Source: a virus (taxonomy: Duplodnaviria > Heunggongvirae > Uroviricota > Caudoviricetes). Taken from it: 31,820 bases of DNA. Each line of letters opens with the position of its first letter. Positions within the stretch are counted from its first letter, which is position 1. The notes below the pieces were generated by a model that had not been told where the DNA came from, ran no database searches, and worked only from the letters and a program-made list of their open reading frames with translations. The position numbers and the translations under genes are program-made. Below, piece by piece: positions 2,585-29,864 of the stretch. The DNA lies in IMG/VR virus record IMGVR_UViG_3300046820_002180, positions 1 through 31,820 of that record; one strand, written 5' to 3'.

Positions 2585-3040
2585 ATGGCGTTAACATCAT
2601 ATGGAATTGACTATCCATTTAGAGATAGTAGATACGGAGATTACTTAAAAACTACCGAGTCTCCACAAAGAGAAGTAAGAGCTAATCTCATACACCTACT
2701 TTTAACAAGAAAGGGTACGAGATATTACTTACCTGACTTTGGGACAAGGTTATATGAATACATATTTGAACAAAATGATGTGGTAACATTCAATCATATT
2801 GAGGAGGAGATTCGTGAGGGTATAAGAAAATTTATACCAAATGTAGAAATCAAATCTTTAAACATAATGTCAGCGGAAAATGACCCTGATGAAACAAAAA
2901 CGTATACACAAGACGAAGACGAAAGATTGTTTAGGGTTTCTGATTATTCGAGTAAACCTTATACAGCTAAAGTTAAACTTGATTATACAGTAAATAACGG
3001 AGCATTTTCAGTATCAGACTTTATAATTATTAACATATAA
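2585..3040 (+). CDS. Baseplate wedge protein, T4 gp25 / P2 gpW-like
   Basis: GIDYPF start, NLIHLLLTRKGTRYYLPDFGTRLYEYIFE signature, IRKFIPNVEI. Lies directly upstream of a gp6/J-like gene. Confidence 0.9.
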   Translation: MALTSYGIDYPFRDSRYGDYLKTTESPQREVRANLIHLLLTRKGTRYYLPDFGTRLYEYIFEQNDVVTFNHIEEEIREGIRKFIPNVEIKSLNIMSAENDPDETKTYTQDEDERLFRVSDYSSKPYTAKVKLDYTVNNGAFSVSDFIIINI

Positions 3041-3041
3041 A

Positions 3042-4871
3042 ATGGCAAAAGAAATATCATACGCAACAAGAGATTTTGCAGGTTTAAGAGACGAATTAGT
3101 TTCATTAACTAAAAAGTATTATCCAGAATTAATAAGTAACTTTAACGATGCATCAATTTATTCAGTATTACTTGATTTAAATGCTGCGGTTGCTGATAAC
3201 TTACATTTCCATATAGATAGAGTTTGGCAGGAAACGATGTTGGACTTTGCACAACAAAGACAATCATTATTTCATATTGCAAAAACTTATGGTATCAGAC
3301 TACCTGGTTTAAGACCATCAGTTGCATTATGTGACTTCTCAATTAACGTTCCTGTTAGAGGTGATAAAGATGACGAAAGATATGAGGGTATTCTAAAAGC
3401 AGGGGCTCAAGTTTCAGGTGGAGGACAAATATTTGAAACTCTTGAGGATATTGATTTTTCAAATCCTTTCAATAGTAAAGGTGAACCTAATAGATTAAAG
3501 ATTCCAAATTTTGATAACAATAGTAAATTAATATCATATACAATCACCAAAAGAGAGGCGGTTGTAAATGGAACAACTAAGATTTATAGAAGAGTTATTA
3601 ACGAGGTTGACCAAAAACCATTCTTAAAACTATACCTACCTGAGAAAAACGTTTTGGGTGTTGTTAGTGTAATCCATAAATCAGGAACAAACTATGCTAG
3701 TAACCCTACATATGATGAATTCACAAACGGAAATAAATGGTATGAAGTTAAATCATTAATGGAAGATAGAGTTTTTATTGAGGACGCAACTACCATTTCA
3801 GATACAGATAATTTTAAATCCGGTGACTACCTTAGAGTTGATAATAAATTTATTACTGAGTATACACCTGAAGGTTATTTCAGTGTTACTTTCGGTTCAG
3901 GAAATGTAGACCCAATGGATAATTTGGATAACTATATGAACGGAACTATGAAAGTTAATATAGCAACTTTCCTTAATAATAACTCATTGGGTAACATACC
4001 AAGAGCAAATACCACATTATTCATCAAATATCGTATTGGTGGTGGTAAAGAATCAAATCTTGGGGTTAATGTAATAACATCAATAGATACAATTGATTTT
4101 GCATTAAATGGTCCAAATTCAACAATAAATGACCAAGTATATCAATCATTAAGAGTTACAAATATAACACCTGCAGTGGGTGGTGCTGATTCACCGACCA
4201 TAGAGGAAATTAGAAATATGGTTGCATATAACTTTGCAGCACAAAATAGAGCGGTAACATTAAATGACTATAAATCTTTAATTGAAACGATGCCATCAAC
4301 TTATGGAGCACCTGCTAAGGTTAGTGTGATGGAAGAAGACAACAAAGTGAGAATTAAATTATTATCGTACGATAGTGAAGGTAATTTAACGGATATTGTA
4401 TCTAACACACTTAAGAATAACGTATTGAACTATTTGTCTAAATTTAGAATGTTAAATGATTTCTTAGACATTATGAGTGGTGAAGTTATCGATTTAGGGT
4501 TGGAGGTTGATTTGGTTGTAAATAAAAACGAAAGTCAAAGTGACGTACTAAAAGAAACTGTTAATACTGTAACAAACTTCTTTGCTATCGACAAAAGAAA
4601 AATGGGTGACCCATTATTTGTTGGTGATTTGATGAGAGAAATAGGTAATGTAACAGGAGTTGTGAACGTTGTGGATGTTAGAGTATTCAACAAAATCGGT
4701 GGGAAATATTCATCAGCCGAAATATCTCAAGCTTACAAGGATAATATTACAAAAGAAATATTACAATTCGATTCGACCATATATATGAAATCAAATCAAA
4801 TTTGTCAAATTCGATTCCCACAAAGTGATATTAAAGTCAGAGTAAAAACTTTAACTTCGGCTACATATTAA
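3042..4871 (+). CDS. Baseplate wedge protein, T4 gp6 / baseplate J-like
   Basis: ISYATRDFAGLRDEL, FGSG, YRIGGGKESN, GGADSPTIEEIR, AQNRAVTLNDY motifs of the gp6/J family. Confidence 0.9.
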   Translation: MAKEISYATRDFAGLRDELVSLTKKYYPELISNFNDASIYSVLLDLNAAVADNLHFHIDRVWQETMLDFAQQRQSLFHIAKTYGIRLPGLRPSVALCDFSINVPVRGDKDDERYEGILKAGAQVSGGGQIFETLEDIDFSNPFNSKGEPNRLKIPNFDNNSKLISYTITKREAVVNGTTKIYRRVINEVDQKPFLKLYLPEKNVLGVVSVIHKSGTNYASNPTYDEFTNGNKWYEVKSLMEDRVFIEDATTISDTDNFKSGDYLRVDNKFITEYTPEGYFSVTFGSGNVDPMDNLDNYMNGTMKVNIATFLNNNSLGNIPRANTTLFIKYRIGGGKESNLGVNVITSIDTIDFALNGPNSTINDQVYQSLRVTNITPAVGGADSPTIEEIRNMVAYNFAAQNRAVTLNDYKSLIETMPSTYGAPAKVSVMEEDNKVRIKLLSYDSEGNLTDIVSNTLKNNVLNYLSKFRMLNDFLDIMSGEVIDLGLEVDLVVNKNESQSDVLKETVNTVTNFFAIDKRKMGDPLFVGDLMREIGNVTGVVNVVDVRVFNKIGGKYSSAEISQAYKDNITKEILQFDSTIYMKSNQICQIRFPQSDIKVRVKTLTSATY

Positions 4872-10470: not shown

Positions 10471-11276
10471 TGAAAGTTTTAAAAAACATTAGAGATAATA
10501 TATTTTTTAATTTAGAAACCAACTTTAAACCTGATTTAGGAAGAGAAGATGCGTTAGAACAATTTGAAAATGAAACAGTAAGGACAATCATTAATCCGGT
10601 TGATAATTACGAAACTATGAGGTTTATACATAAACCTTATTCTGGTATCACATCACATTCTACCGACACTCAATCAGACATTTGGTTTTATTTTTATTTC
10701 TATAATCAAAGTGGAACACATAGTGGTGGGTTAGACTATTCCTTAATTGGTATTGACCATAAGGAAAATGCACAACAATTAATTCACACAACTAAATCGT
10801 TTTTTAGATTGGAATTTTTTATCGTTCCTGACGGAGAAAATCCCGACAGAACAAATAGAAAATTAGTTTTTGCTAAAAATCTTTCATTACCATTAGGTGA
10901 GAAAGTTTTTTACACAGGATTCAATGATTATATAAGTGTACCAATATTCAACGGTTCAAATTATAGAAATAAAGAAAATATGTATCTGTTTTGGTTCCAA
11001 GACGACGACGCGTTCAGAGGAACTATGTTAACAGGAACAACATTTTATATGACGGCTAGATTTTTTAATGGTGAAGATGGAACAGTTTTAAACTTTTCAA
11101 ACACATCATTGGCAACTAACGCTTCAGTTTTAGAATATAGAGATTTATATTATAAGGTAACCATAGACAGGACGGATTATTCTTATCAAGTGTTTAGATA
11201 TTCAGGAACCACAGGAACCAGAATTGGTGAATCGGGAGACCCCATAAAATTTTATGAAATAGTATCTGGAGGATAA
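10470..11276 (+). CDS. Putative virion structural protein (268 aa)
   Basis: TAATG-coupled ORF within the structural operon. Confidence 0.6.
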   Translation: MKVLKNIRDNIFFNLETNFKPDLGREDALEQFENETVRTIINPVDNYETMRFIHKPYSGITSHSTDTQSDIWFYFYFYNQSGTHSGGLDYSLIGIDHKENAQQLIHTTKSFFRLEFFIVPDGENPDRTNRKLVFAKNLSLPLGEKVFYTGFNDYISVPIFNGSNYRNKENMYLFWFQDDDAFRGTMLTGTTFYMTARFFNGEDGTVLNFSNTSLATNASVLEYRDLYYKVTIDRTDYSYQVFRYSGTTGTRIGESGDPIKFYEIVSGG

Positions 11277-12211
11277 TGAATAAAGTAACACATACCATAT
11301 TAAAAACCACAACAGGTCAAACTTTTAATTTACCACTATTTTTAGAACAAAGTATTAAGGATTTGGGAATTATGATTGGGTTTGATGGTAATATTGGTCA
11401 AACTCAACAGATATGTAATTTTACATATAAAGGTAATGGTAATTCAGTTACTGTTTACAATACTGTTAACACAACAAGGTACGGAGCATTAATTGACGCA
11501 ATCTTTACAGTTAAATGGGGAGACGGTGCAACAAGTACACTTACAATGCCGGTTATGAATATCGACGACGTGAGTTTACCAAGTGCTTCACACACATATT
11601 CAAGTAATGGAACATACATTATTGAAGTTACAGTAAGTTCTCCTTGGGACGTTAGAAAGGTAAAAAAGACAATAAAAATCCCCTTTGTTCAATCCTTTGG
11701 GTACCCAACTGATTTAGGGCAATTAACTTTTGACGTTCCGTATAGTGAAGGAGATACACAATCACAAACCTATCTACAAGATTATAGAACCCTAACAGGT
11801 GCCACTAATAGTACCACGGTTACCTTTTTGGGTATTGGTAAAAGTAGAATTGATGAGAAAAAATTATATGGAACAAATGCGGGTTACACAGGGGTAACAG
11901 TTACTTTAGAATATTCAGGATATACAATTGACGGGTTGGTTTATAGAGATTATGAAGATGGGTATACGCATATATCAGGAGTGACTTCAGGAACCACAGA
12001 AACATTTTTTCAAGACGAAATCTACAACGGAATGATTACAAGAAATGAACATTTTTTAGGATTTGTAGACGACCCACAAATTTTTTCAGATGTTTTTGTT
12101 GAGAGAGGACAGATGGGAGTTATGGAAAGAAACTTCAGATTGACCGAAATGGACAACACAGGAGAATTAGATGTTTATGGAAATGGATATTTTAAAGTAC
12201 GAAAACAATAA
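11276..12211 (+). CDS. PKD-like domain-containing virion protein (311 aa)
   Basis: FTVKWGDGATST...SASHTYSSNGTYIIEVTV matches the PKD signature (WGDG...HTY..G.Y). TAATG-coupled. Confidence 0.7.
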   Translation: MNKVTHTILKTTTGQTFNLPLFLEQSIKDLGIMIGFDGNIGQTQQICNFTYKGNGNSVTVYNTVNTTRYGALIDAIFTVKWGDGATSTLTMPVMNIDDVSLPSASHTYSSNGTYIIEVTVSSPWDVRKVKKTIKIPFVQSFGYPTDLGQLTFDVPYSEGDTQSQTYLQDYRTLTGATNSTTVTFLGIGKSRIDEKKLYGTNAGYTGVTVTLEYSGYTIDGLVYRDYEDGYTHISGVTSGTTETFFQDEIYNGMITRNEHFLGFVDDPQIFSDVFVERGQMGVMERNFRLTEMDNTGELDVYGNGYFKVRKQ

Positions 12212-12240: not shown

Positions 12241-13149
12241 ATGGCAGTAGGAAGTTACGGAACTATAAGACCTGCGGATGTTTCACCGGCCGATGTTGAT
12301 ATATATTATCACTTCGTTTCGGGTAGAACCGCTAGTACAGAAGTTCAATTTGAGAAGATAGATAACTCACAAGATATATTAACACCTGTATTCCACAATG
12401 ATTCAACAGGTGGTAATTCAGGTACTGAACTATTGGGTGGTATGTATAACCTAAAACTAGAATCATCAAGATTCTCTGAGTTGGGTATATATACATTATA
12501 CTTGAGACCAAAACAAATCAGAACAGTTGTTTCTGATTGTGGTGTATTGTCATCATTACCATCGGTTAGAGGATTGATTATTGACATTTCCCAAATCGAC
12601 GCTGGCGACACTAACAAATTTACACCCCAAGGTTTAGTAGGTTACCGAGTTGAGTACTTGGATGATTCAGGTGCTAAGATTCCTAATTTTTTTAGAATTG
12701 TTACCTCATCTTTTTACTGTGAACCAGTGTTATCGAATTTAACAAATTCATCACAAAAAGCAATTAGATACAGATATTCTGATATAACAACAAACTTAAT
12801 GTTTTTGACATTAACACCAAGCTCTTCACCGTCTAGTAGACCTAATACCATACCATTTATTGGTCAACCAAATCAAAATATCATTCTAACAAATACACAT
12901 TTTAATCCTGTTATGTTAGAAGTTGAAATGGTAGAACACGATGCAACAACATTGGCACACGCACTTTACGGTAATCAAAGTAAGTCGGTTGTTGATGGAA
13001 TTTACACGATTTATGACCAAAATAATAATATCTATAAGCAGTTTAACTTATACGAAATTAAAGACGATATTAACGAGACACTATACGAAATAAGAGAGAA
13101 GAATGATAATATCGACGAAACATTAAATTTTGATGTTATAACTCAATAA
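12241..13149 (+). CDS. Putative virion structural protein (302 aa)
   Basis: Clean ORF with an A-rich leader, TAATG-coupled to the 2137-aa gene. Confidence 0.6.
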
Positions 13150-16100
13150 TGGCTAAAATAACAAGAAAGGTCCCATATCAGGCGGCTAGTGGTGGTGAAA
13201 CGTTCAATGACAAGCTCATCGGTTTACAAATAACTGATGGTTCTAGTCAATTGGCCAATACCCAATTCCTTATTGATAGAGTAATTCCTGAAAAAGACAG
13301 TAAGACTTTTCACACACAACCATTTTCTGATTTCCTTACTTTAGATACATTAAAAGAAGAAACGAATTCAATTTATGATAATAACTCTACAGGTATTAAT
13401 TTACCTGATAGAAGTAAAAAAATTAAATTTCATAATTCTAAAAACGATGCGTCAAAATCTTTATTTGGTTCCTTATCAACAAGATTAAATGGTGCGGTTG
13501 GGAATATCATCGAAAGTTTTCCTGCCGCGTTATTGGTTGACGTCGACTCACCAGTTTCATCAACTAATGTTAGTGCGGTATTAACGGGTGCAACTCTCGG
13601 GTACGACCCAATTTCAAACACCACACAATTCCAATTTAAAAAATCTTTAATTTACAATCCATTTGATATTGTTATTCAAAGACCTCAAGGGGTTGAAGTT
13701 TTACAATCAACTAATTCATATAGAGATTTTTATTCATCATATACAAAATATGTGGTGGATAACCTCAGTGGTTCAACATATGAAATCGTTTCATACGAAG
13801 AACCTGATAATGATGGTTTTATTACATTAAAAGTAAAAGGATATTGTTTCGGTGGATATTCAATCTACACTGATAACTTTTTAATTAGACCAAATAATGG
13901 TGTAACTGAAGAATTCTTCAATAGTCTTGATGAATTAGAAACCGTATTATTAGATAGAGAATCAACACCCAAATATACCGCAGCATTTAGAATACCGACA
14001 GATTTATATGATGGAGCAGTCACAGAATTACAAAGTGAATTTGCAACTTGGCCATTAAGTCGAGATGGGTGGAACATACAAATAGTTGGTCTTGATTACG
14101 AATCATACGTTTCCGAATTAAGTAATATAGGTAATATTGTTGACGATTATAAATCAAACTTAATCATTAGATTTATGACGTCACCGCAACTTTATGAATT
14201 CGATACTGAAGGAAAAAAGGCGGAGGCAATCTTCCAACTTTATGGACAGAGTTTCGATAAGGTAAAGAAGTTTATTGACAATATTGCGTTTATGAGAAAT
14301 GTTAGCTATGATAAAGCTAACAACGTACCTGACGTATTGTTAAAAAATTTAGCGGAAACATTAGGTCTATCAACAGTCAATCTTTATGATGAAAAGTCAT
14401 TAGAAGAAACTCTTTATACAAGACATACTTCACAATACGAAGGACTTAATATAGGTGCTAATTTATTAGAGGGTGAGTATGAATTTTACAGAAGATTAAT
14501 TGTAAACCTTGCACAATTATATAAATCAAAAGGTACAAGATTAGCGATTGAATTCTTTTTAAAATTCATCGGTGCTCCTGAACCTATGATAAGGTTGGAT
14601 GAATACATCTATCGAGTTGATAGTTTACTACCAAAGGCCACATATGAAAATGATATTAGAGATGTAATCAATGGAGTAAAAGAATTTCAACACGTTGAGT
14701 TTGTACCATTTGCACAAACAATTGATGGTGTTGATTACAATGCATACACTTATAGATTGGTGACCACATCTGGTTCAACCGTACTATCAAGAAGTCAATA
14801 CCCTGTAACAACTGATGGATTACCGAGAGGATTGGAAAGTTCCGATGGTTCATTGTATTTTGCAATGGGTGCCGGTTGGTATAGAAAAACATTAGACCAC
14901 AGGTCTGGTGATATCTTAGACGTTGAAAATTCAGTACTTACGGGTAATACTAAAGTTCTTAAAACAAAATCAAAACCATTTACATATGGTGAAGATTATT
15001 TTAATAACTACAGAAAATTACCTGGTTTAGATTATGGTTACGATTTAAACATCGAAATTGATAATAGAAAAACTGAAGTATTAGATGACGATGGTAATTT
15101 TACATATAAATTAAACAGAAAAAATATTAATATTTTCTTAGATGGTTCAAGAGCAATCGATTATGACATCTATAGAAAAAGTAGAAACTTAACGTTGACT
15201 TTTGGTACTTTACCACCACAGGAAAGACCATCATTCGCCGAGTTTTTAAAAGAAGCGGTTAGTCAAGTAATTAGAAATTCAAGTACAATTAAGTACAAGA
15301 AAGAATACAGACTATTAAAACAAGTCTATGAATCGTATGTAAATAGCGTTTCATTTACACCGTACAATTACATTAAAATAAATGAATTTATTCAAAGAAT
15401 GAGTCCATATTGGGTTAATGTAATTGACCAATTCGTTCCTGCAACGACCCAATGGTTGGGAGGTAACTTAATAGAAAACGGAATATTCGGTAGGTCTAAA
15501 TTCCAATACAAACAACCTTGTACACCAAAAGAATTTGTTGAGGTATTATATCCTGATTTCGAAACTGTAATTGAGGAAGACTTAGAAACAATTTTAGGTG
15601 GAGGGACTACATCATATGAAAACGCATCCAATGAAGATAGTCTAAGAGGATTATTTTCATTTAGCGGTTTAACATATACAATTTATTTAAACATAAATGG
15701 TAATATCTATTCAGGAACAAGTTCAAACTTACGTTCAGAGCTTTTCTCAGGATACACACCAACGGTTAGATGTACTTCATTAACTCAAACATCTTTATCT
15801 GTTCCATTAATTTGTGATTACAAAAATTGGATTAATTTAAATTTACCATTAATTAAAAACAAATGGAAAGAAACATTAACAAATTTAGTACAAACAATTA
15901 ATAGTCAAATAACTCAAGACAACTATGGTTGTATTGATGATTATGCACCATACACGGCAAAGACACAAACAGCGAATTGTTCTCAAATTTATAAAAAGAC
16001 ACTTTCGTTAGAATATTTCTTAGATATTGATGGTGTTGAAAAGGTAAGATTTACATTAGATACTACCGATTGTAGAAACGGTGAAGATATTGATTTTTAT

Positions 16101-19100
16101 TTTGAACCGAATTATGGTTTAGATAAAGACGAATGTAATTTAAGAGTTGAATTGTCAGGACCGGCAATACCATATCAAGGAGTTACAAAAAATTGTCAAT
16201 TAGTTGAAGACGTATACATAACTGTTACAGGAGTAACAACAGGTGTTGAAAATAATGGTATTTGGGATTTAAACATATACGTTACAAGTGGAACAACTTG
16301 TAACTCGGGTGTATGTACTGATTGTGATTTTATTGAAATCAATGACCCTAAACCAATTAAGAGAGCAATATATGCTGACGATTTACAGTTAGTTACTTGT
16401 ACATATATCATCCCTAATGTTAAAGAAACAGACGTATATGATATTATTGTTTCCGACGCCGCAAACTGTGAACAAAAATTTAGAATTGAAGGATTACAAC
16501 AAAAGATAGTTAAAATTTCTGATGAAGTAAGTGGTTATACTATAAATCCAAAAGTTCAATACAAAACATCTTTCGATTATGGTATAAAGAAAGGGACCGA
16601 AATTTACAAATATATTTCAGGGTCAGTTCCAACAACTTGGCAAGGACTACAAAGTACTCTATCATCTGGTGGAGTTGTTGAGACATCAATCGAAGATATT
16701 GAAATAGGTGACACGATTTTAAGTATAAGTCAAAAAGATTGTAATTTACTTCCAACGGAAATGTTTAAGTTCGTTGAGAGTAACGGTTATCAATTTACCT
16801 TTGATTATTCATTAATAAAAGTAGTAAGAAAAGAATGTTTAAGTTCAATTAAGAAAGATGTTATTAATGGTGAGTTTGAAGTGTTACCAACAAGTAAAGT
16901 TTTGGTATACACTAACATTAATGAATACTTAGAAACTGTTCCATATCATTTTACATACAAATATCCTGAAGATTTATTTGTAAGACCTGAACAACCTGAA
17001 GTACCTTGTTGTGAATATCCTGAAGGACATTTTCAGAGTGGAGACTTTATGATAAGTCAATACGGTTTTCCTATTGAGGTAACAAGTGTTGATTTAAATT
17101 ATTGTAATAGAGGAATTTACTACACATTAGTAACATCAGGAACTTCAATCAATTCAGATACAATCTTATTTAATGGACCTTCAAGTGGTATTAATAGAAT
17201 TGTTGTGTCAACTAAAAATGATTCAGCATTCATTAGTCCATTTACAGGAAATAAATTTGAGTGTTTAGATATTGATACTCAACAATATTATTTAGGTTAT
17301 GAATGTGATAACGTACCGAGTGTTGAAAGTTTATTAAGATTAACAGGTTGTACCGATGGTAATTGTACTCAAGTACAGGCAGGACCAAATACACAAAGGT
17401 CATATATTGCTGAAGATACTACACCAACACCAACACCTAGTCCAACTCCAACTCCTACACCGACCCCTACAGGTACACCTACACCTACACCTACACCGAC
17501 ATCAACACCTACACCGACTAGTACTCCCACACCTACCGCAACAGGTACACCTACACCAACACCAACAATTACCCCAACACCTACCGCAACAGGTACACCT
17601 ACACCAACACCAACAATTACCCCAACACCTACCGCAACAGGTACACCTACACCAACACCAACAATTACCCCAACACCTACCGCAACAGGTACACCTACAC
17701 CAACACCAACAATTACCCCAACTCCTGTTTGTAACTTTAATGTGGGTGTAATTTTAGTATCGTCAACCCCAACTCCAACACCTACATCAACATCAACACC
17801 AACACCAACGCCTGTTTGTGACTTTAATGTAGGGGTTACTATTATAGCTTCAACACCGACTCCAACACCTACATCTACACCGACCCCAACTCCAACACCT
17901 GTTTGTGATTTTAACATAGGTGTTAACATTATTGCATCAACTCCAACTCCTACACCAACACCTACGAGTACTCCAACTCCTACCCCAACACCAACACCTA
18001 CACCGGTTTGTGATTTCGGTATTGGAGTGATAGTTATTGCATCTACACCAACTCCAACACCTACACCAACACCAACTAACACACCTACCAGTACTCCTAC
18101 GCCAACTCCGACACCTACACCAACTCCGGTTTGTGAATTTGGAATTGGAGTAACGATTATTGCATCTACACCAACACCAACACCCACTCCAACTAGTACA
18201 CCAACTAGTACTCCTACCAATACACCAACTGTAACTCCAACACCTACACCGGTTTGTGAATTTGGAATTGGAACAATTATTATCGCATCAACTCCAACAC
18301 CTACACCTACTAGCACACCAACACCGACAGCGACTGCTACACCAACACCAACTGCAACTGCAACTCCGACATCAACACCAACTAGTACACCAACTAGCAC
18401 ACCGACACCAACGGCAACTCCAATATGTGAATTTGGAATTGGAACAATTATTATCGCGTCAACACCGACTCCTACACCTACTAGCACACCGACTAATACA
18501 CCAACGCCAACACCTACAAGTACACCTACACCAACTGCCACAGGTACACCTACACCTACACCAACTAGTACACCAACTAGTACACCAACTAGTACACCAA
18601 CTAGTACGCCAACACCAACTGCAACTCCGGTTTGTGAATTTGGAATTGGGGTGATAGTTATTGCATCAACTCCAACACCTACACCTACAAGTACACCTAC
18701 ACCAACTGCAACTCCAACCGCAACTCCAACATCAACACCAGTACCACCTACAGAAACTCCTACACCTACACCAACAAGTACACCAACACCAACAAGTACA
18801 CCAACACCAACAGCTACAGCAACTCCAACGCCAACTGCAACTCCAATATGTGAATTTGGAATTGGTGTGGTAGTTATTGCTTCGACCCCAACACCGACCC
18901 CAACTAATACACCAACTAGCACACCGACCCCAACGCCGACTAATACACCAATACCAACTGACACTCCAACACCGACACCTACTAATACACCAATACCAAC
19001 CGACACACCAACGCCAACACCAACTAACACACCTACTAATACACCAATACCAACCGACACACCAACGCCAACACCAACTAACACACCTACGCCAACACCA

Positions 19101-19562
19101 ACTAACACACCTACCCCTACACCAACAGAGACCCCAACACCTTGTGTGGCGACTATTACTAATACAAGTAACCCAACAAGTTGTGGATTTAACGCTGACG
19201 GTTCATTAACATTAAATGGTTCAGGTGGGGTTGGTCCGTACACGTATTATTTATATGAGGACACAACATTCCCTTATGAAACATCGGGAGGTAGTGTTTA
19301 TCCTGGATTCCCTGTAACTAACCAAACAGGTGGTTACAATGTAACAGGATTAGTACCTGGTGGATATTACTTAAGAATTGTAGATGCGAACGGATGTGAA
19401 GACTTTAGTGAAGTTGTGGTATTACCATATGACGACACTACTTGTGTGACCCCACCACCAACAACATATTTCTGTAAAGAAAATGAAATGAGTCCTTGTC
19501 TTGAACAAGTAAGTCCTTGTACCGGAAGCCAAATAGTTTGTACACAATTTGAACAAGTTTAA
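13149..19562 (+). CDS. Giant baseplate wedge protein (gp7 / P2 gpI-like region) fused to a degenerate Hint domain, a Thr-Pro stalk with nine Cys beads, an SprB-type repeat and a Cys-rich tip
   Basis: [14 protein letters not shown]...[28 protein letters not shown] is the P2-I/gp7-type signature. Hint-like blocks at 16581-17219, TP region at 17418-19142, SprB-like repeat from 19143. Confidence 0.75.
16581..17219 (+). other. Degenerate (probably catalytically dead) Hint/intein-like domain inside the 2137-aa protein
   Basis: Ordered blocks [42 protein letters not shown]...[26 protein letters not shown]...DTILFNG...IVVSTKN follow the Hint pattern. Cys1 is replaced by Gly, the TxxH His is missing and there is no HN. 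Confidence 0.6.
17418..19142 (+). repeat. Thr-Pro (mucin-like) coding repeat, about 575 aa, interrupted by nine P[VI]CxFx[VI]Gxx[ILV][IV][AS]S units
   Basis: ACN-CCN codon repeats. Cys codons at 17730, 17817, 17904, 18009, 18132, 18255, 18426, 18633 and 18849. Confidence 0.97.
17529..17720 (+). repeat. Perfect tandem repeat, 4 x 48 bp ([16 protein letters not shown])
   Basis: Unit acacctaccgcaacaggtacacctacaccaacaccaacaattacccca at 17529, 17577, 17625 and 17673. Confidence 0.95.
19143..19430 (+). other. SprB-type repeat domain (Bacteroidota adhesin-like)
   Basis: [25 protein letters not shown]...[18 protein letters not shown] matches the SprB repeat pattern SC...DGSI....SGG..PYTY...GL..G.Y...V.DANGC. 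Confidence 0.8.
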
Positions 19563-20141: not shown

Positions 20142-20828
20142 ATGTTAGCAAGATTTTATTTATCAGGACCATTTTCAGCATCGACATTGTCTGATAATTT
20201 TACAATAGTGGGTAACCCTGGTAATTACATAACCACGGGTGTAACAAAGTCACAAATGCAATATCCTTCATATAAAGAGATTGTATTTCTCGATTCAGTG
20301 ACAGGAGGTACAGTTACCGCAGTTGGTGGTACTTGTAACGGAACATCAGTAAATTGGTCCGTGATTCAAGCAACCCCAACCCCAACACCAACACCAACTC
20401 CAACACAAACACAAGGAGATGGATTATGTTACAGTTATGAAGTTAGTGATACTGTAAATCAAAATAATTATGGTGTAAGATATACTGACCCTAACGTTGG
20501 TACAAGTCAAGATGTTAAATTTAATATGTTACCGGGAGATGATGGTAATAGTTTTACAACATTCAACATATGTAGTACTGTTGACCCAACATTACTTGAT
20601 TACACAGGAGGTTCTCCTACTGGTGTTGGTTCGGTACCTGGTGTGGCACGTTTTGGTGGTCTTACTCCTTGTGAATCATCTTTTGATTGTACCACACCAC
20701 CAGCAACTGAATACTGTTATGTGAACGGACAATCTGTAGTAGTGGGACCTTTCTCTACATTACAAGAATGTCAAGCAGCTGCAGGTTCTTTTGTATGTAA
20801 CCAATGTGTTGGTACTCCACAACCTTAA
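20142..20828 (+). CDS. TP-linker, Cys-rich modular protein (228 aa), putative virion decoration/adhesin
   Basis: Small N-domain with a single Cys, a TP linker, a module shared with the next gene and a Cys-rich tip. No signal peptide. Confidence 0.7.
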   Translation: MLARFYLSGPFSASTLSDNFTIVGNPGNYITTGVTKSQMQYPSYKEIVFLDSVTGGTVTAVGGTCNGTSVNWSVIQATPTPTPTPTPTQTQGDGLCYSYEVSDTVNQNNYGVRYTDPNVGTSQDVKFNMLPGDDGNSFTTFNICSTVDPTLLDYTGGSPTGVGSVPGVARFGGLTPCESSFDCTTPPATEYCYVNGQSVVVGPFSTLQECQAAAGSFVCNQCVGTPQP

Positions 20829-20853
20829 AAGTATAATTAAAATTTATAAAATT

Positions 20854-20881
20854 AAACCCCTTTATTTTAAGGGGTTTTTTT
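20854..20881 (+). terminator. Rho-independent terminator
   Basis: AAACCCCTT-TATTTT-AAGGGGTTT followed by a T run. Confidence 0.85.
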
Positions 20882-20913
20882 ATGGTTTATTTTTAATAAA
20901 AAAAAGGATATAC

Positions 20914-20920
20914 TATTTAT
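20914..20920 (+). promoter_or_regulatory. TATTTAT motif, putative late promoter
   Basis: 5 nt upstream of the ATG at 20926. Confidence 0.6.
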
Positions 20921-20925
20921 GTATT

Positions 20926-22656
20926 ATGGGATTAGTAATTAGACTGCACGACATTGTATCACCTAGTGTGAGCGGGTTTACCGTTTCATATAAAGAAGGT
21001 AGTTCACCATACCCAATGAATAGTGGGTATATCACATATGCAGATTTTCCATCAGGAACATCCACAGTTAATATTAGTGGAGTAACATTAAATTTTAATA
21101 GTAATTATTGGGTTAAAATTACCGATAAATTTACAGGTAGATATATTATTGAGAATATTGAGACGAATGACCCAATTGCTTATATGGACTGTTGTCCTCA
21201 ACCAGTTGGTTTAGGGGCAGTTTGTTATCATAGTTGTTACCCACCAACAATTAATAGTATTACTTGTGTTGGATTGGTACCACCGACAGCAACTCCGACT
21301 CCGACTCCGACTCCGACTCCGACTCCTACACCAACAGCAACTGTAATAGGACCAACCGCCACCCCAACTCCAACTCCTACAAGTACCCCCACACCAACAC
21401 CGACACCAACAGAAACAGGTGATAGTTGCTTGTGTTATTGCGTCACTTATGATGTGAATGATTTACCAAATGACTTATATGTTAGATACTCTGTTTGTGG
21501 AACTGCGAGTGTTGAAACAGAATTAATTTCTGCAATAGAAAGTATGGATAATGGTGATGGAACCACAACTGCGTGTATTTGTGTGAAACAAGGTGGGGCA
21601 TATTCAACACCGGTATGTGTACAGGGAGGTCTTGAAATACTTTGTCCTGAGGGAGTTACTTGGTCAATGGGTAGTAGTTGTACATCATCCGCCACTTGTT
21701 TTATAGTGAGTGACCCTACACCAACAGCAACCCCAACTCCAACCCCTACACCTACAGCAACCCCAACACCTTATTATTTATTATTAAGTCGTTGTGATTC
21801 TGCACCAAATACAGTAACAGGATGGACTATGAATGCGTACACACAATCACAAATAATGGTTGGCGATATATTCTATTCTGCTGGACAATATTATTATCAA
21901 GTGATTAATTATCAAACAGCACAACCAAATCCTGCAGGTATTATAGATGGTACTAAGTCAAATGATTACACATCTTGCGACCAAACACCCGGACATTATG
22001 TTGCACCAACACCTGACCCAGGACAATCAATATTAATTCATATAGGACAAACATTTAGTAACACAACCCAACCTTGTGCAATGTATGAATCTGCAATTGC
22101 AACCAATAGTGCTACGGTATACTTAAATGGACATAACATACCGGTTAATGGTGATTATGCATATAACACCGCCGCTTGTAATGTTGGTGATGAATATAGT
22201 GGTAACTCTAATTACTATGCTGCACTTGCTAATAGTACTAGATATACATTTACAATTGGAAGTGGGGGATATATTAATAACGTTACAGCTTGTGGAGCAA
22301 TACCAACAGCAACTGCGACTCCTACACCAACTCCTACCCCGACCTCTATACCATTAGTTGGATTGTTTAAGTCACAAGGATTGTTAGAATTTAATAGTCA
22401 TTGTGGTAATAACTATTTAATCAATAGTCCATTCTATGGTGAAACAACTTCAATTAATAGTTTATACGGAACATACGTATATTCAGACACAAACTACACA
22501 CCACTTGATGGTGAAAGTAAATGGTATGCGGTAGGTAGTGATGACCAAGCGAATACTTCAGATTTACCATACTACTCAGTACAAATTGCGGGTAATGGCG
22601 AAGTAACAAGTGTTCAATACATAACAAGCTGTTCTGGTGGAGGAAGTCAGGCATAA
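20926..22656 (+). CDS. TP-linker, Cys-rich multi-module protein (576 aa), putative decoration/adhesin
   Basis: Start revised from 20791 to 20926 (MGLVIRL), because the longer version overlaps the previous gene and crosses a terminator. Several TP linkers separate the modules. Ends CSGGGSQA. Confidence 0.75.
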   Translation: MGLVIRLHDIVSPSVSGFTVSYKEGSSPYPMNSGYITYADFPSGTSTVNISGVTLNFNSNYWVKITDKFTGRYIIENIETNDPIAYMDCCPQPVGLGAVCYHSCYPPTINSITCVGLVPPTATPTPTPTPTPTPTPTATVIGPTATPTPTPTSTPTPTPTPTETGDSCLCYCVTYDVNDLPNDLYVRYSVCGTASVETELISAIESMDNGDGTTTACICVKQGGAYSTPVCVQGGLEILCPEGVTWSMGSSCTSSATCFIVSDPTPTATPTPTPTPTATPTPYYLLLSRCDSAPNTVTGWTMNAYTQSQIMVGDIFYSAGQYYYQVINYQTAQPNPAGIIDGTKSNDYTSCDQTPGHYVAPTPDPGQSILIHIGQTFSNTTQPCAMYESAIATNSATVYLNGHNIPVNGDYAYNTAACNVGDEYSGNSNYYAALANSTRYTFTIGSGGYINNVTACGAIPTATATPTPTPTPTSIPLVGLFKSQGLLEFNSHCGNNYLINSPFYGETTSINSLYGTYVYSDTNYTPLDGESKWYAVGSDDQANTSDLPYYSVQIAGNGEVTSVQYITSCSGGGSQA

Positions 22657-22679
22657 TGAAATAAAATTATAAATAAAAA

Positions 22680-24113
22680 ATGGCAGTAGCAAGCATAACG
22701 GTTAATTACACGGCGAGTTGTACAGGATGTACACAAGAATATAGGTATGCCCTTAGTAGTGGTAATATCAATACCGCTACAGTTATACCATATTCAGGTT
22801 CGTCACCTATAGTCATTACAGGTTTAACGACGGGTAATTCGTATGTTTTTCAAATGAGAAATGTGTGTGAATTAATTTCAAGTGATTGGACAAGTGTACA
22901 AACCGTAACCTGTGAAGGAGTAATAACACCTACAGCCACACCTACAGCCACACCTACAGCAACTCCTACTCCTACACCAACGGCAACTGTGGCGGGACCT
23001 ACTGCAACACCAACACCTACACCTACTCCGACCGCAACTATTGCAGTACCAACCCCAACCCCAACACCGACCCCTACATTGAATATAGTTGACCCTGAAG
23101 ACCCAATAGTATATTATTACTATGCTTTAGGTAATTGTAATGATATGAGATACTCAGGTACCGAAACGACTGTTTTTGGTATTGGAGCACCATTAGTGGT
23201 TCCTGTTTGTATGACCTCTGCACAAATTACTCAATGGTATTCTACAGCTAATTTTGCACAACAATCGTTAAGTATTGATTACGACGACCCTTGTGGTTTT
23301 GGTGATAACTATTCGGGAGTTGCCATTGGTAGAAGTACCACACAATTAACAGAAGGAACAGTTTATCTTGTTGGTAACAATTGTTTATCAATTGTTGCAG
23401 TTGAAACACAATACGTTCAAAATTGGAGCGTGAATTTAGATGGAATCTCACCAATAGGTGGTGATAATCCTTGTGGAGCTTGTGACCCACCATTTACAGG
23501 ATATACACTTGCAGGATATAGTGGTGTGACTTGTGATACAGGTGAAAATATCCTTGCGGTATCAATACTTGGTAGTTTAGTGGTGGGTAATGAATATGGA
23601 ATACAATTGTATAGTGGGAATACTCCTATGGCCAATACTAGATGTATGACTATCAACGCCAATCTTGGTCCTCAACTTACTCTTACGGACCCAATAAATA
23701 ATCCATATTCAGGACATCATATCACAGATGGAGGACCATTTGTGTTAGGACAACCAATATTCCAAGGATATACCGATTGTGGAACTTGTAATGCAACACC
23801 TAAAAAATATAAAATAGATGGAGTAAGGTGTGACAACTCTCAATATAGTGTAACTGTATGGTCAAATACATTACCAACAATTGGAATTAACGATACGTTT
23901 AGAGTTAATGATTCATTCTTAAACACATTCTGTTGGAAGGTAATAGCAAAAGATAATTATAAAACAGTAGTATATGGATATCCTGAATATAGTATTTTGG
24001 ATACAGGATGTTCACCTTGTGACGGAACCCCACCAACAACACCAGCACCTACTCCAACCGATAGTGGAGGAAGTGGAGGTAGTGGAGGAAGCTCTGGAGG
24101 ATACAGCGGTTAA
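22680..24113 (+). CDS. FN3-like N-domain + TP linker + three Cys-rich repeats (477 aa), putative adhesin
   Basis: ITGLTTGNSYVFQMRNVC...SDW is FN3-like. Three repeats end in CxxC (CGAC, CGTC, CSPC). Gly/Ser tail. Confidence 0.75.
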   Translation: MAVASITVNYTASCTGCTQEYRYALSSGNINTATVIPYSGSSPIVITGLTTGNSYVFQMRNVCELISSDWTSVQTVTCEGVITPTATPTATPTATPTPTPTATVAGPTATPTPTPTPTATIAVPTPTPTPTPTLNIVDPEDPIVYYYYALGNCNDMRYSGTETTVFGIGAPLVVPVCMTSAQITQWYSTANFAQQSLSIDYDDPCGFGDNYSGVAIGRSTTQLTEGTVYLVGNNCLSIVAVETQYVQNWSVNLDGISPIGGDNPCGACDPPFTGYTLAGYSGVTCDTGENILAVSILGSLVVGNEYGIQLYSGNTPMANTRCMTINANLGPQLTLTDPINNPYSGHHITDGGPFVLGQPIFQGYTDCGTCNATPKKYKIDGVRCDNSQYSVTVWSNTLPTIGINDTFRVNDSFLNTFCWKVIAKDNYKTVVYGYPEYSILDTGCSPCDGTPPTTPAPTPTDSGGSGGSGGSSGGYSG

Positions 24114-24127
24114 AAAAAATTAAATAT

Positions 24128-24772
24128 ATGGGAACATTTAATAGAGAAGCTAATTTAAACGATAGTGTTTTTTTTCAAAGAGGAGTTGTTAAAACAACAA
24201 ATCATTGGACAAGACCATCGTATCAAAAAGTCTATGATTTTTTATTTAATTTATATCTTAAATCAACAATCATTAAAGATTATGATGTTTATTTAATGGG
24301 AGGAGTTTTATTTGATTTCAATAACACTTGGGATTTAGATATGTGTCTTGTCGGAGGTAACCACACTGATGAAAAAATAGAAAAAGATTTAAATTTTATG
24401 ATGGATATGGGATTAAATCAATTTAATCTATTATTAGATGTTACTTGGTATGAACAAAGACCATCCAATTTAAGATATGACCAAATGGTTGAAAACGAGT
24501 TTAAACCGGACAATATTATTCACAAAAAAATAGGATATACCAAAAAACAAATTAATAATGAATTTGAAGAAAAAGATTTAAGAAATGACTCAAACTTTAT
24601 TTTATTGAGTGACTATTTGGTTCAAGGAAATTATGGAGTAAATGGTAGACATACCGAAAAAATGATAAATAAAGTTCAAAATAACACGAAACCGGAAACA
24701 ATAACAACATTTAGTGTTATGGATTTTTTAAAAGAAAATGAAAGTTATTTCCATTCTAACACAAATAGATAA
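24128..24772 (+). CDS. Pol-beta-superfamily nucleotidyltransferase-like protein (214 aa)
   Basis: VYLMGGVL-x6-WDLDMCL gives the hG[GS]...DxD motif. The third acidic residue is in LLLDVTW. Confidence 0.7.
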   Translation: MGTFNREANLNDSVFFQRGVVKTTNHWTRPSYQKVYDFLFNLYLKSTIIKDYDVYLMGGVLFDFNNTWDLDMCLVGGNHTDEKIEKDLNFMMDMGLNQFNLLLDVTWYEQRPSNLRYDQMVENEFKPDNIIHKKIGYTKKQINNEFEEKDLRNDSNFILLSDYLVQGNYGVNGRHTEKMINKVQNNTKPETITTFSVMDFLKENESYFHSNTNR

Positions 24773-24784
24773 AATAAAAAAACG

Positions 24785-24791
24785 TATTTAT
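24785..24791 (+). promoter_or_regulatory. TATTTAT motif, putative late promoter
   Basis: 5 nt upstream of the ATG at 24797. Confidence 0.6.
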
Positions 24792-24796
24792 ACTAA

Positions 24797-25918
24797 ATGG
24801 CACAATTAATATTAACTTGGTCACCACCGGCAGATTGTAGCGGATGTACTTACGAATATAGGTATAAGTTATCAAGCGCATCGACGTATGTGACAGGTGC
24901 AACTAGTAATACTATTGTGACTATTAATGGATTAATTGATGCACAAACATACAATTATAGTGTTAGGACTATATGTCCTGATGCTGGTGGTAATTTAAGA
25001 AGTAGATGGTTAAATAATAGTTCAGTTACTTGTAACACGAATCCACCATTACAACCCACACCTACACCAACAATTACCCCAACACCTACCGCAACGGGTA
25101 CACCTACACCAACCCCTACACCGACAGCAACGGTATCGGCACCAACCGTAACTCCGACCCCTACACCGACTCCTACTCCTACAACAACTGTTGGTTCTTG
25201 TTTAAGTGGTACATTAGAAGCTACAGGTAATTGTTCGGGTTATGAGTCGTCAACATTTACATTAGCAAGTGGATATCAAGCAACAATTACACCATCGGGA
25301 TATTTCTTTAGTGGTACAGGAACAAGATATGCATATGCTTACTTAAGAACAAACACAGGTACAAATATTCAAGAGTTTATATTAACACAAACTAACAGTA
25401 ATACTCCAACTTTTTCACCTGCAACATACACAATCACAACACCGGGAACATATCAATTATATGGTCAACAGGTCAATTGTGGTCAAAATGGTGGAACAGG
25501 TGGTTCAGGTCTTATTAAATTAACTGTTGGTAATTGTCAAGTTTTATCAACCCCAACACCGACCCCTACACCAACGTCAGCACCTTTAAATAGATTTTAT
25601 GTAGCCTCACCGGTTGCTGATATTGATACAACATATTGTGTTTCGCCTGGTTATGTATTAACAGGTGCACTATGGTCATATGCAACTACAGTAAGTGGTT
25701 TAATGAATCAACAAGTTTATATTGACCAATATGGTGATGATGTGTTCGTTGGAGTAGATGGTTATAAGTATGGAATTTCTTTAACAGCGGGAATAAATAC
25801 ATATACTGATGGAACATCTAACTATTATTTAATTCAAATCGACCAATATGGGTATGTATATAATGTACTAGCACCAAATTGTGGTACTTCTGGAGGTGGA
25901 GGTGATATACCACTATAA
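24797..25918 (+). CDS. FN3-like N-domain + TP linkers + two modules (373 aa), putative adhesin
   Basis: LTWSPP...CSGCTYEYRYK...INGLIDAQTYNYSVRTIC is paralogous to the N-domain of 22680-24113. The C-module resembles the last module of 20926-22656. Ends CGTSGGGGDIPL. Confidence 0.75.
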   Translation: MAQLILTWSPPADCSGCTYEYRYKLSSASTYVTGATSNTIVTINGLIDAQTYNYSVRTICPDAGGNLRSRWLNNSSVTCNTNPPLQPTPTPTITPTPTATGTPTPTPTPTATVSAPTVTPTPTPTPTPTTTVGSCLSGTLEATGNCSGYESSTFTLASGYQATITPSGYFFSGTGTRYAYAYLRTNTGTNIQEFILTQTNSNTPTFSPATYTITTPGTYQLYGQQVNCGQNGGTGGSGLIKLTVGNCQVLSTPTPTPTPTSAPLNRFYVASPVADIDTTYCVSPGYVLTGALWSYATTVSGLMNQQVYIDQYGDDVFVGVDGYKYGISLTAGINTYTDGTSNYYLIQIDQYGYVYNVLAPNCGTSGGGGDIPL

Positions 25919-28172: not shown

Positions 28173-28784
28173 ATGGAGAACAATTTAAAAAACAAAGCGA
28201 AGATTTTGGGATTGGATATCTCAACTAAAACAATTGGTTGGGCATTATTTGATATCAATAGTTCTAAATTATTGGAACTAACACACTTTTCCCCTAAAAT
28301 TAAACCACAACCTGAAGATAAAATTGAAGAATTATTATTGAAGGCTGAAGCGTTTAAAAAACATTTATTGGAATATAAAAATATGGGAATCACTCGAGTA
28401 GTGATTGAAGAACCGTTATTACAATCAAATAACATTTATACGGTAGGAACACTATTACGTTACAATACATTAATTTTAAAGAACTGTTATGACGTATTGG
28501 GAATTGTTCCCACATTCATCTCAACATATAACGCAAGAAAATTTGCATTCCCCGATTTAGTAGGAGCAAACGACAAAGGTCGTAATGTTTTATTTGGTGG
28601 TTATCCAAAAGATATTGATAAAAAACACGTTATTTGGGAACACGTTAATAACGTATGTCCTGATGTTAAATGGTTATATGGTAAAACAGGAAGTCTTAAA
28701 AAAGAAAATTATGATATGAGTGACGCAGCAACTGCAGTCATCGGATATGTCAATATGATTAAGAGTGAAAAATCCGGCAACTAA
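28173..28784 (+). CDS. ruvC: RuvC-like Holliday junction resolvase
   Basis: ILGLDISTKTIGW, VVIEEP and DMSDA supply the RNase H-fold catalytic D/E/D/D. Confidence 0.85.
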   Translation: MENNLKNKAKILGLDISTKTIGWALFDINSSKLLELTHFSPKIKPQPEDKIEELLLKAEAFKKHLLEYKNMGITRVVIEEPLLQSNNIYTVGTLLRYNTLILKNCYDVLGIVPTFISTYNARKFAFPDLVGANDKGRNVLFGGYPKDIDKKHVIWEHVNNVCPDVKWLYGKTGSLKKENYDMSDAATAVIGYVNMIKSEKSGN

Positions 28785-28823: not shown

Positions 28824-28895
28824 AGGACGGGACGTGGGTTAAAATCCACGTTTGGTTGGTGTTCCCTCGGAGTGGTGTCCGAGGGATTTTTTTTT
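28824..28895 (+). ncRNA. Candidate ~70-nt small RNA or attenuator (two hairpins)
   Basis: Hairpin GGACGTGGGT-TAAA-ATCCACGTTT, a G/T-rich linker, then the terminator hairpin. Has its own promoter motif. Confidence 0.5.
28863..28895 (+). terminator. Rho-independent terminator
   Basis: Perfect 9-bp stem TCCCTCGGA-GTGGTG-TCCGAGGGA followed by T9. Confidence 0.9.
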
Positions 28896-28922
28896 CTCCT
28901 TTTTTTTCCTTATATTTTTCTT

Positions 28923-29864
28923 ATGGGTGTATCTAATGATGATTATGAACCAATTATCGAAATACTAGAAGATATTCTAGGTGACCATCGTATGCATAAT
29001 GACTATAAAGGTCAGATGTCATTCGATTGTCCTGTTTGTTCATATGAGTTAAAAGGTTTGGACCACGGAGATGGTAAAGGTAATTTAGAGGTTAATTATA
29101 GACACAACGTTTATAAATGTTGGGCTTGTAGTGAAGTGAACTACACTCACGGTTCATTACATAAATTAATTAAAAAATATGGAACAACCAAACATTTAAA
29201 AAGATACGAGTTATTAGTACCCGAAGAAAGTTTTGAAAACGGTAAACCAAATTTTAAAGCAGTTAAATTACCTGATGAATTTATTCCATTTTCTAAAGTT
29301 AGTGCTGGTTTAAAACTAACACACTATTACAAGACGGCACTAAACTATGTTCGTAAAAGAAATATAACCGATGATATGTTAACAAAATATAACATCGGAT
29401 TTTGTTATAAGGGTCCATATGCGAATAGAATTATAATCCCTTCATATGATGCCGAAAATAGATTAAATTATTTCATTGCAAGGTCGTATGAAGCAAAGAC
29501 TAAATTCAAATACAAAAACCCCGAAGCACAAAAAGAAATTATAATATTCAACGAATATCTAATTGATTGGTTTATGCCGATTTATATTGTTGAGGGAGCG
29601 TTCGATAGTATTTTCTTACCCAACTCAATTCCAATGTTAGGTAAAGTTATGGGAGAAAAATTATTTAGTCTGTTATATGAAAAGGCGTTAGGTGTTGTTG
29701 TAGTATTAGATGGGGATGCTTGGGAAAACTCTCAAAAGATTTATCACAAACTAAATGGCGGTAGATTGTTTGGAAAAGTATGGACAATAAAATTACCATT
29801 GGATAAGGATATTGCTGACCTTCAAGGTAAATTGGATAATTACGAAAAAATACAGTTAGATTAA
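28923..29864 (+). CDS. DNA primase (Zn finger + TOPRIM, DnaG / T4 gp61-like)
   Basis: CPVC...CWAC zinc finger, RIIIP, KYKNP, IVEGAFD, VLDGDA, KDIAD. Start revised to the ATG at 28923 because the GTG at 28872 lies inside the terminator. Confidence 0.9.
   Translation: MGVSNDDYEPIIEILEDILGDHRMHNDYKGQMSFDCPVCSYELKGLDHGDGKGNLEVNYRHNVYKCWACSEVNYTHGSLHKLIKKYGTTKHLKRYELLVPEESFENGKPNFKAVKLPDEFIPFSKVSAGLKLTHYYKTALNYVRKRNITDDMLTKYNIGFCYKGPYANRIIIPSYDAENRLNYFIARSYEAKTKFKYKNPEAQKEIIIFNEYLIDWFMPIYIVEGAFDSIFLPNSIPMLGKVMGEKLFSLLYEKALGVVVVLDGDAWENSQKIYHKLNGGRLFGKVWTIKLPLDKDIADLQGKLDNYEKIQLD

Follow-up and report, generated by a model that had tools for sequence, protein, structure and literature searches.

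Hint domains are known almost solely as single-turnover self-processing enzymes, namely inteins, bacterial intein-like (BIL) domains, Hedgehog proteins and pretoxin-Hint proteins. Here, we describe a predicted Hint domain of a different kind, which is encoded in a 31,820-nucleotide stretch of DNA from an uncultured tailed virus (Caudoviricetes; positions 1 to 31,820 of IMG/VR record IMGVR_UViG_3300046820_002180), referred to below as the window. The domain lies in a giant protein of 2137 amino acids belonging to the tail or baseplate module, and the catalytic residues of inteins are missing from it. We consider it likely that this domain is a non-catalytic pseudo-Hint that arose from an autoprocessing domain similar to BIL domains and has been retained as a structural joint or knob, connecting the conserved body of the giant protein with its variable distal part. 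A first-pass annotation, made from the sequence of the window, had proposed a catalytically dead Hint fold at positions 16581-17219 and was followed up by structure prediction, structure comparison and analysis of orthologues.

For the orthologue collection, 24 proteins were gathered first, followed by 80 of 440 related IMG/VR loci. From the orthologues, 63 distinct homologous segments with 31-93% identity were cut and aligned (alignment A2), while a set of 25 full-length proteins was used for the conservation profile and for checking Gly1145. The 63-sequence alignment served as input for an AlphaFold2 model of residues 1040-1375, which reached a mean predicted local distance difference test (pLDDT) score of 80.8 and a predicted template modelling (pTM) score of 0.76. 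Within the Hint-like block, pLDDT values were mostly between 82 and 94, and they dropped to 67-72 in the loop formed by residues 1279-1298.

The model was compared with 48,161 PDB representatives using VIA-align, and the best 30 matches were BIL domains, inteins, the Hedgehog Hog domain or Vint only (Z 5.9-13.9). The first 27 of these had Z-scores of 8.0-13.9 and root-mean-square deviations (rmsd) mostly of 2.1-3.1 Å (maximum 3.8 Å) over about 122-147 residues. Among them were Tetrahymena BIL2 (6tmm; Z 13.9, 2.5 Å over 142 residues), the Clostridium thermocellum BIL domain (2lwy; Z 13.9, 2.2 Å over 134), the class 3 AceL NrdHF intein (Z 13.5, 2.5 Å over 143), TvoVMA (Z 13.2, 2.1 Å over 137), NpuDnaB (Z 12.9, 2.1 Å over 131), Hedgehog Hog (1at0; Z 12.4, 2.4 Å over 133) and Vint (Z 8.0, 3.1 Å over 125). 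The Hint matches span model residues 103-318, equal to residues 1142-1357 of the protein, and cover nearly the whole target chains. The best unrelated matches after the Hint set were immunoglobulin (Ig) domains with a Z-score of 5.7, which align to model residues 1-80. Foldseek against the PDB likewise returned Hint chains alone down to an E-value of about 0.1, with the C. thermocellum BIL domain 2lwy on top (E 4.7e-5). Residues 1142-1357 are thus predicted to adopt the Hint/intein horseshoe fold, in agreement with the proposed Hint fold at residues 1145-1357 of the open reading frame (ORF) at 13149-19562 on the plus strand. Foldseek against BFVD found Hint-domain proteins of phages and giant viruses, some of them with fused FN3, collagen or PASTA modules.

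As a separate observation, the three best BFVD matches, A0A1C3NF88 (1304 amino acids), A0A1C3NFC6 (506 amino acids) and A0A1C3NFC5 (153 amino acids), have adjacent accession numbers. Because of this neighbourhood, the three proteins probably share one genome, and they may represent another virus with side-by-side Hint-fold proteins, including a long protein and a free-standing Hint of 153 amino acids.

At the sequence level, the Hint signal is nearly invisible. The Pfam Hint models (Hint, Hint_2, Intein_splicing, PT-HINT, Hom_end_hint and Vint) matched neither the segment nor the 63 orthologous segments, even at an E-value of 10. A profile search against PDB sequences was empty, and a PHROGs search with the segment and its orthologues gave no Hint signal. 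A phmmer search with residues 1000-1420 against 1.84 billion representatives returned 30 proteins, all of them orthologues or fragments of orthologues, and tblastn with residues 1-1417 against 50,697 phage records gave no match. Within the 159.8-kb source record, no paralogues of the dead Hint were found, and a PF13403 family search returned nothing.

The same holds for the comparison with the 167-amino-acid Hint protein encoded next to the giant gene, with which the segment had been aligned by eye. The sole BLASTP high-scoring segment pair comprised 13 residues (E 0.29). In Smith-Waterman alignments the score was reached by 95 of 500 shuffles (z = 0.86), and 5 of 30 other segments of the giant protein scored equally high against the neighbour. 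Comparison of the 63-member segment profile with the profile of the neighbour's family by hhalign gave E-values of 0.03-0.05 at a probability of about 1%. This marginal alignment pairs a 15-letter stretch of the segment with DDKMMGADGIEIEVT, and also ILFNG with FIANG, which matches the pairing of the first-pass annotation. Taken alone, pairwise or profile similarity to the neighbouring Hint would therefore be no evidence, as it is no better than chance. Of the claim that all Hint blocks occur in order and can be aligned with those of the neighbour, the structural half is borne out by AlphaFold2, VIA-align and Foldseek, whereas the sequence similarity is at chance level.

That neither sequence nor profile searches link the domain significantly to a Hint family speaks for a non-homologous look-alike, that is, for an unrelated β-rich fold rendered Hint-like by AlphaFold2 or for a convergent horseshoe. 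Such a reading could also appeal to the alignment behind the model, which consists of 63 sequences of one family, and to the length of the domain, which has about 215 residues versus 130-150 in mini-inteins. Against this stand Z-scores of 12-14 with rmsd values of 2.1-2.5 Å for alignments that exceed 130 residues and include about 95% of the chain in many independent Hint structures, with no competing fold. Also, the structural boundaries equal those that the first-pass annotation had derived from motifs only, which was counted against a look-alike, and the motif remnants are arranged as expected for a Hint domain, among them the FNG turn and, in most orthologues, a His of the penultimate type. 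A look-alike is thus highly improbable.

These remnants follow the Hint order with G-[IL]-K-x-[GD]-[TS]-x-V in block A, GD-x-[IL]-LS, FNG and a last strand of the ILLQH type. In most orthologues, the domain ends with FNGN...QILLQH-x, which resembles the intein ending ...ANG-ilv-H-N and looks vestigial; this argues for descent, presumably from a once-active BIL-type domain, rather than for convergence.

The catalytic positions were located by structural equivalence. In VIA-align, over 15 intein structures place their first residue on model residue 106, equal to G1145, and all 63 segments as well as all 25 full-length proteins have Gly in this column. The block-B loop follows a long hairpin and reads L-P-T-[ST]-[KQE]-[LV], which is the most conserved motif of the domain (L in 63, P in 59, T in 57, T or S in 40 and 23, and K, Q or E in 44, 9 and 8 of the 63 segments). 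The His of the block-B motif TxxH is absent from the FEVLPT[ST]K stretch of the 63 orthologues in any plausible register. The final residue of several full-length inteins aligns to model residue 316, equal to T1355. In this column, H occurs in 36, Y in 12, F in 10 and T in 3 of the 63 segments, and the next column holds T, K, Q or E. A vestigial His is therefore present at the end of the last strand (ILLQH-x) in 36/63 orthologues, the protein of the window itself having Thr, while a terminal His-Asn was found in 0/63, and no conserved nucleophile comes after the last strand. The reported loss of Cys1, of the block-B His and of the terminal His-Asn was thereby confirmed for the window and holds equally for the orthologues, none of the 63 retaining the catalytic residues. 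With all three residues lost, namely the position-1 nucleophile, the His of block B and the Asn at the C-terminus, the domain as modelled would be incapable of canonical acyl shift, cleavage or splicing.

It could still be asked whether the domain is an autoprocessing Hint with a non-canonical nucleophile, for example a conserved internal Cys in a class 3-like arrangement, which cuts the junction of core and stalk during assembly. The layout of conserved body, Hint domain and variable cassette resembles that of pretoxin-Hint and BIL proteins, and those proteins cleave. Two cysteines are nearly invariant, C1230 (16836-16838) in the long hairpin of the Hint-like domain and C1319 (17103-17105), located just before rather than within the block-F strand. 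A PCC motif is also frequent in the low-confidence loop around residues 1279-1298. The class 3 mechanism has been described, and both class 2 and class 3 inteins act without a nucleophile at position 1 (PMC7664689). However, the phage domain does not show the WCT signature of class 3 inteins (Trp in block B, Cys in block F and Thr in block G, with a terminal Asn), since a block-B Trp and a terminal Asn are missing, and it also lacks a conserved +1 nucleophile. In four orthologues, hardly any sequence that could be released follows the domain, and N-terminal cleavage would separate the distal part from the baseplate-proximal body. We therefore regard residual autoprocessing as very unlikely. 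C1230, C1319 and the PCC motif might form a disulfide or a metal site.

The domain is a constant part of the protein family. It is present in 78/78 related loci that reach the region, and the two loci without it end at contig ends. Between the window and locus L003 (91% identical), the ratio of nonsynonymous to synonymous substitution rates (dN/dS) is 0.11 in the Hint-like domain, which is under purifying selection; the core, the Ig-like domain and the neck have values of 0.067, 0.031 and 0.105, respectively. Along the giant protein, whose conserved core comprises residues 1 to about 1420 with a variable tail beyond, column identity is 0.4-0.8 up to about residue 1350 and collapses past about residue 1400. 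For the 25 full-length orthologues, it amounts to 0.35-0.5 in the Hint-like domain, about 0.2 in the neck and at most 0.1 beyond about residue 1500.

Beyond the domain and a Cys-containing neck of about 45-60 residues, three outcomes were found: the protein ends, continues with a module of about 200 amino acids, or continues with a Thr-Pro stalk. Four orthologues (1344-1354 amino acids) terminate 44-51 residues past the domain. In those with a stalk, the Thr-Pro region comprises 370-1050 residues and the distal domains differ. In the window, the Thr-Pro stalk begins about 60 residues C-terminal of the domain, so its placement at the root of this stalk was correct. Since conservation collapses after domain and neck and the tails vary, the pseudo-Hint is the last globular piece of the conserved body, to which exchangeable distal parts are attached. 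Three of the short orthologues, P0009, P0010 and P0016 (1344-1354 amino acids, ending 46-51 residues past the domain), share the C-terminus NTIFMHIPN or NTLFMHIPN.

Two orthologues deviate within the domain itself. In P0004 (2009 amino acids), an inserted domain of about 250 amino acids at residues ~1580-1840 separates the block-F strand (GIYYQIDY) from the LILFNG turn; it belongs to PF09603, the Fibrobacter succinogenes major paralogous domain, according to precomputed Pfam matches. The loop used for this domain-in-domain insertion differs from the classic insertion site of endonucleases, and the insertion suggests that the loop between the block-F strand and FNG is exposed. P0012 (1507 amino acids) lacks, after GIYYQLNTISGI, the last two strands (FNG...IIVS) and the Cys neck, and a Thr-Pro linker follows directly. 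A recombination junction within the domain, a fold that is split by nature or a chimeric assembly could each account for this.

From these data, the following model is proposed for the pseudo-Hint. It would remain in the mature protein permanently as a folded element, placed between the Ig-like domain and the short Cys neck, from which the lineage-specific tails would emerge. As the two termini of a Hint fold lie close to each other, the chain could continue past the domain, which may then act as a rigid lateral knob or joint at the transition between the body near the baseplate and the exchangeable distal part. The most conserved loop, VLPT[ST]K, once belonged to the active site and has probably been re-used for a structural or protein-protein contact. 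The proposal of an intein-like domain domesticated as a structural or interaction module agrees with a domain that is catalytically empty in all orthologues examined, conserved and under selection.

A more specific version of such a contact would be that the emptied active-site cleft serves as a docking socket for a peptide tail or strand of another virion protein, with VLPT[ST]K at the position of the former block B. This could be pictured by analogy with the intein cleft that holds the extein junctions, or with a split intein that captures its missing strands, and the accessory Thr-Pro proteins or the free-standing Hint encoded downstream could be candidate ligands. If so, a self-cutting fold would have become a device that couples exchangeable decorations to the baseplate, either non-covalently or locked by a disulfide, and P0012, without its last two strands, would be a naturally split form. 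We consider this version unlikely.

Several points weigh against the pseudo-Hint reading as a whole. The structural evidence consists of predictions throughout. The preference for homology over convergence rests on the fold and on short motif remnants, as sequence methods give no link to a Hint family. The residue equivalences to inteins were read from aligned ranges and from the order of strands and secondary structure, and their register may be off by one, although the loss of catalysis holds whichever register is chosen. The cysteines C1230 and C1319 and the PCC motif have no assigned role. Finally, P0012 implies either that the complete fold is dispensable or that this record is chimeric.

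The neighbouring free-standing gene is a genuine BIL-type Hint. By phmmer, its product aligns end-to-end with Tetrahymena BIL2 (6tmm; E 1.4e-6), with Cys8 as position 1, SEDH as block B and Tyr-Asn in place of the terminal His-Asn. In a collection of 5.8 billion proteins, its family comprises eight clusters, with 75-94% identity where full length. The closest relatives in cultured phages are mini-inteins of Vibrio-phage DNA helicases (27-28% identity, E 5e-5), and a search of a large protein collection for longer related proteins returned none at E ≤0.001, which is weak evidence.

The dead domain and this gene had been interpreted as an active/inactive pair, in which the live domain could, for instance, bind to the dead one or exert its effect via it. 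The two genes are indeed only 57 nucleotides apart on one strand, and BIL2 (6tmm) is among the closest structures for both domains. However, among the 80 loci the free-standing gene adjoins the giant gene in just two, L002 and L003, whose identity to the window is 99% and 91%. Of these loci, 30 include the complete 3′ end of the giant gene, 21 have at least 1 kb and 18 at least 3 kb downstream of it; in the 19 members of the 1-kb set besides L002 and L003, neither the family hidden Markov model nor a scan for the block A and block G pattern detected a free-standing Hint. There is also no significant sequence or profile similarity between the two domains, so they are not specifically related, and the kinship of the free-standing gene with helicase mini-inteins points to an independently acquired element of the mobile type. 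The dead domain is ancient in the giant-protein family and far older and more widespread than the free-standing gene, which was added recently and locally. The data thus do not support an obligatory pair, and a functional one appears quite improbable.

The features discussed here are compiled in Table 1. The source record has 159,820 bases, of which the window is one part, and an estimated completeness of 48% (CheckV). Since relatives of the window occupy contigs of up to 345 kb, its source is an uncultured large or jumbo myophage. The Ig-like domain next to the pseudo-Hint matched titin and obscurin Ig domains weakly and at the fold level only (VIA-align Z 5.1-5.7), and pLDDT was below 50 in the modelled portion of the neck. 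After the Thr-Pro-rich stalk, a SprB-like repeat begins at 19143. Elsewhere in the window, a 311-amino-acid ORF upstream of the giant gene (11276-12211) has weak matches to PKD domains that are below the cut-off (E 0.005-0.007). After the structural module, a RuvC-like Holliday junction resolvase (28173-28784; PHROGs E 3.6e-7) and a DNA primase (28872-29864; PHROGs E 1.8e-34) are encoded.

Table 1. Features of the window relevant to the Hint-like domain (nucleotide positions in the window; residues refer to the 2137-amino-acid protein)
Feature	Position	Strand	Basis or remark
NrdA	33-2423	+	
gp25 homologue	2585-3040	+	
gp6/Baseplate_J homologue	3042-4871	+	
Five ORFs without family match	between the gp6 homologue and the 2137-amino-acid ORF	+	
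Giant tail/baseplate-module protein, 2137 amino acids, carrier of the domain	13149-19562	+	ORF list, translation
Ig-like β-sandwich domain, residues 1040-1119, just N-terminal of the Hint-like domain	16266-16505	+	AlphaFold2 model residues 1-80
Predicted Hint-fold (intein-like) domain without catalytic residues, residues 1142-1357	16572-17219	+	AlphaFold2, VIA-align, Foldseek, dN/dS
Gly1145, where Hint domains have their N-terminal nucleophile (Cys/Ser/Thr 1)	16581-16583	+	intein residue 1 aligned to model residue 106
LPTSK, residues 1246-1250, loop equivalent to block B	16884-16898	+	order of secondary structure, without residue-level superposition
FNG, residues 1341-1343, remnant of the block-G (A)NG turn	17169-17177	+	F in 57, N in 56, G in 60 of 63
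Last β-strand IVVSTK, residues 1351-1356, site of the terminal His-Asn in inteins	17199-17216	+	
Neck with Cys, residues 1358-1419, linking the Hint-like domain to the Thr-Pro stalk, partly conserved	17220-17405	+	alignment
Thr-Pro-rich stalk with repeated Cys-led hydrophobic beads	17406-19142	+	translation
Free-standing BIL-type Hint gene, 167 amino acids	19620-20123	+	phmmer to 6tmm, weak Pfam Hint matches
Several Thr-Pro-rich proteins, with four accessory ones at 20142-25918	after the 167-amino-acid Hint ORF	+	ORF list

The giant protein had been labelled a baseplate wedge protein, and this identity is plausible but unproven. It is encoded in a module with gp25 and gp6/J homologues, as are T4 gp7 and P2 gpI, and the Pfam family Tail_P2_I (PF09684) gave a match to residues 369-416 that stayed below the threshold (E 0.046; 14.0 bits versus a cut-off of 20.6). 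A PF09684 family search of the window's own record returned nothing, and hhalign comparisons with P2 gpI (E 0.49) and T4 gp7 (E 0.2) were not significant. In the non-significant hhalign alignment, YKSKGT (KSKGT at residues 459-463; 14523-14537) is lined up with the KGT motif of P2 gpI. This motif is part of residues 330-500, which form the most conserved stretch of the giant protein with column identities of up to 0.81. A similar KGT-type motif is visible by eye in T4 gp7, again without statistical significance. An AlphaFold2 model of residues 300-620 (pLDDT 51.6, pTM 0.22) was too poor for a fold comparison with gp7. In contrast to the two known proteins, the giant gene is not next to the gp6 homologue, but five genes downstream of the gp25 and gp6/J homologues, and to our knowledge no Hint-like domain has been described in gp7 or gpI.

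Three features set the phage domain apart from known Hint domains: the lack of any catalytic residue, its invisibility to sequence models, and its fixation under purifying selection across hundreds of related giant proteins (440 IMG/VR loci). If the pseudo-Hint reading is correct, a Hint fold can be co-opted as a virion component with a purely structural role. The boundary after the pseudo-Hint and neck would then mark the exchange point for distal, presumably host-recognition, modules, which could be useful for the annotation of jumbo-phage baseplates. No publication on a catalytically empty Hint domain fixed in a phage tail protein was found, which is a weak negative as the literature coverage was incomplete.

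Among the known Hint systems, the Hedgehog Hog domain (1AT0) shares the predicted fold, and the short orthologues of 1344-1354 amino acids resemble Hedgehog in combining a large N-terminal body with a near-terminal Hint. Hog cleaves and attaches cholesterol via Cys1 and the block-B His, whereas the phage domain has neither of these residues and no sterol-recognition region. Class 1 mini-inteins (Npu DnaB, 4O1R; TvoVMA, 4O1S; gp41-1, 6RIZ) and class 3 inteins (AceL NrdHF, 6ZGQ; MchDnaB1, 6RIY) have the same horseshoe fold as the model (Z 10.8-13.5) and the same block order, and the turn before the last strand (FNG versus ANG) as well as, in most orthologues, a His near the end of this strand are kept. 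Unlike these inteins, which are sporadic insertions at conserved sites of host proteins, the phage domain occurs in every orthologue reaching the region. It has no nucleophile, TxxH motif, WCT triad, terminal Asn, +1 nucleophile or homing endonuclease, and because of the missing residues splicing would be impossible by the mechanism of any described class. A recently decayed homing intein was considered as well and rejected in view of the ubiquity of the domain among the orthologues and of its location at a domain boundary.

The best structural likeness is to BIL domains, with equal Z-scores for the C. thermocellum domain (2LWY) and for BIL2 of Tetrahymena thermophila BUBL1 (6TMM/6Y75). BIL domains keep Cys or Ser at position 1, the block-B His and usually the C-terminal Asn, and they cleave themselves, while the phage domain has Gly at the first of these positions and lacks the other two in the 63 orthologues. 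It is also about 70 residues longer as a result of three insertions, and it is not recognised by sequence models. In their placement, however, the two agree, as many BIL domains and the phage domain are part of surface-exposed proteins, in which they link a conserved body to a variable C-terminal region, and are not inserted in the conserved site of an enzyme.

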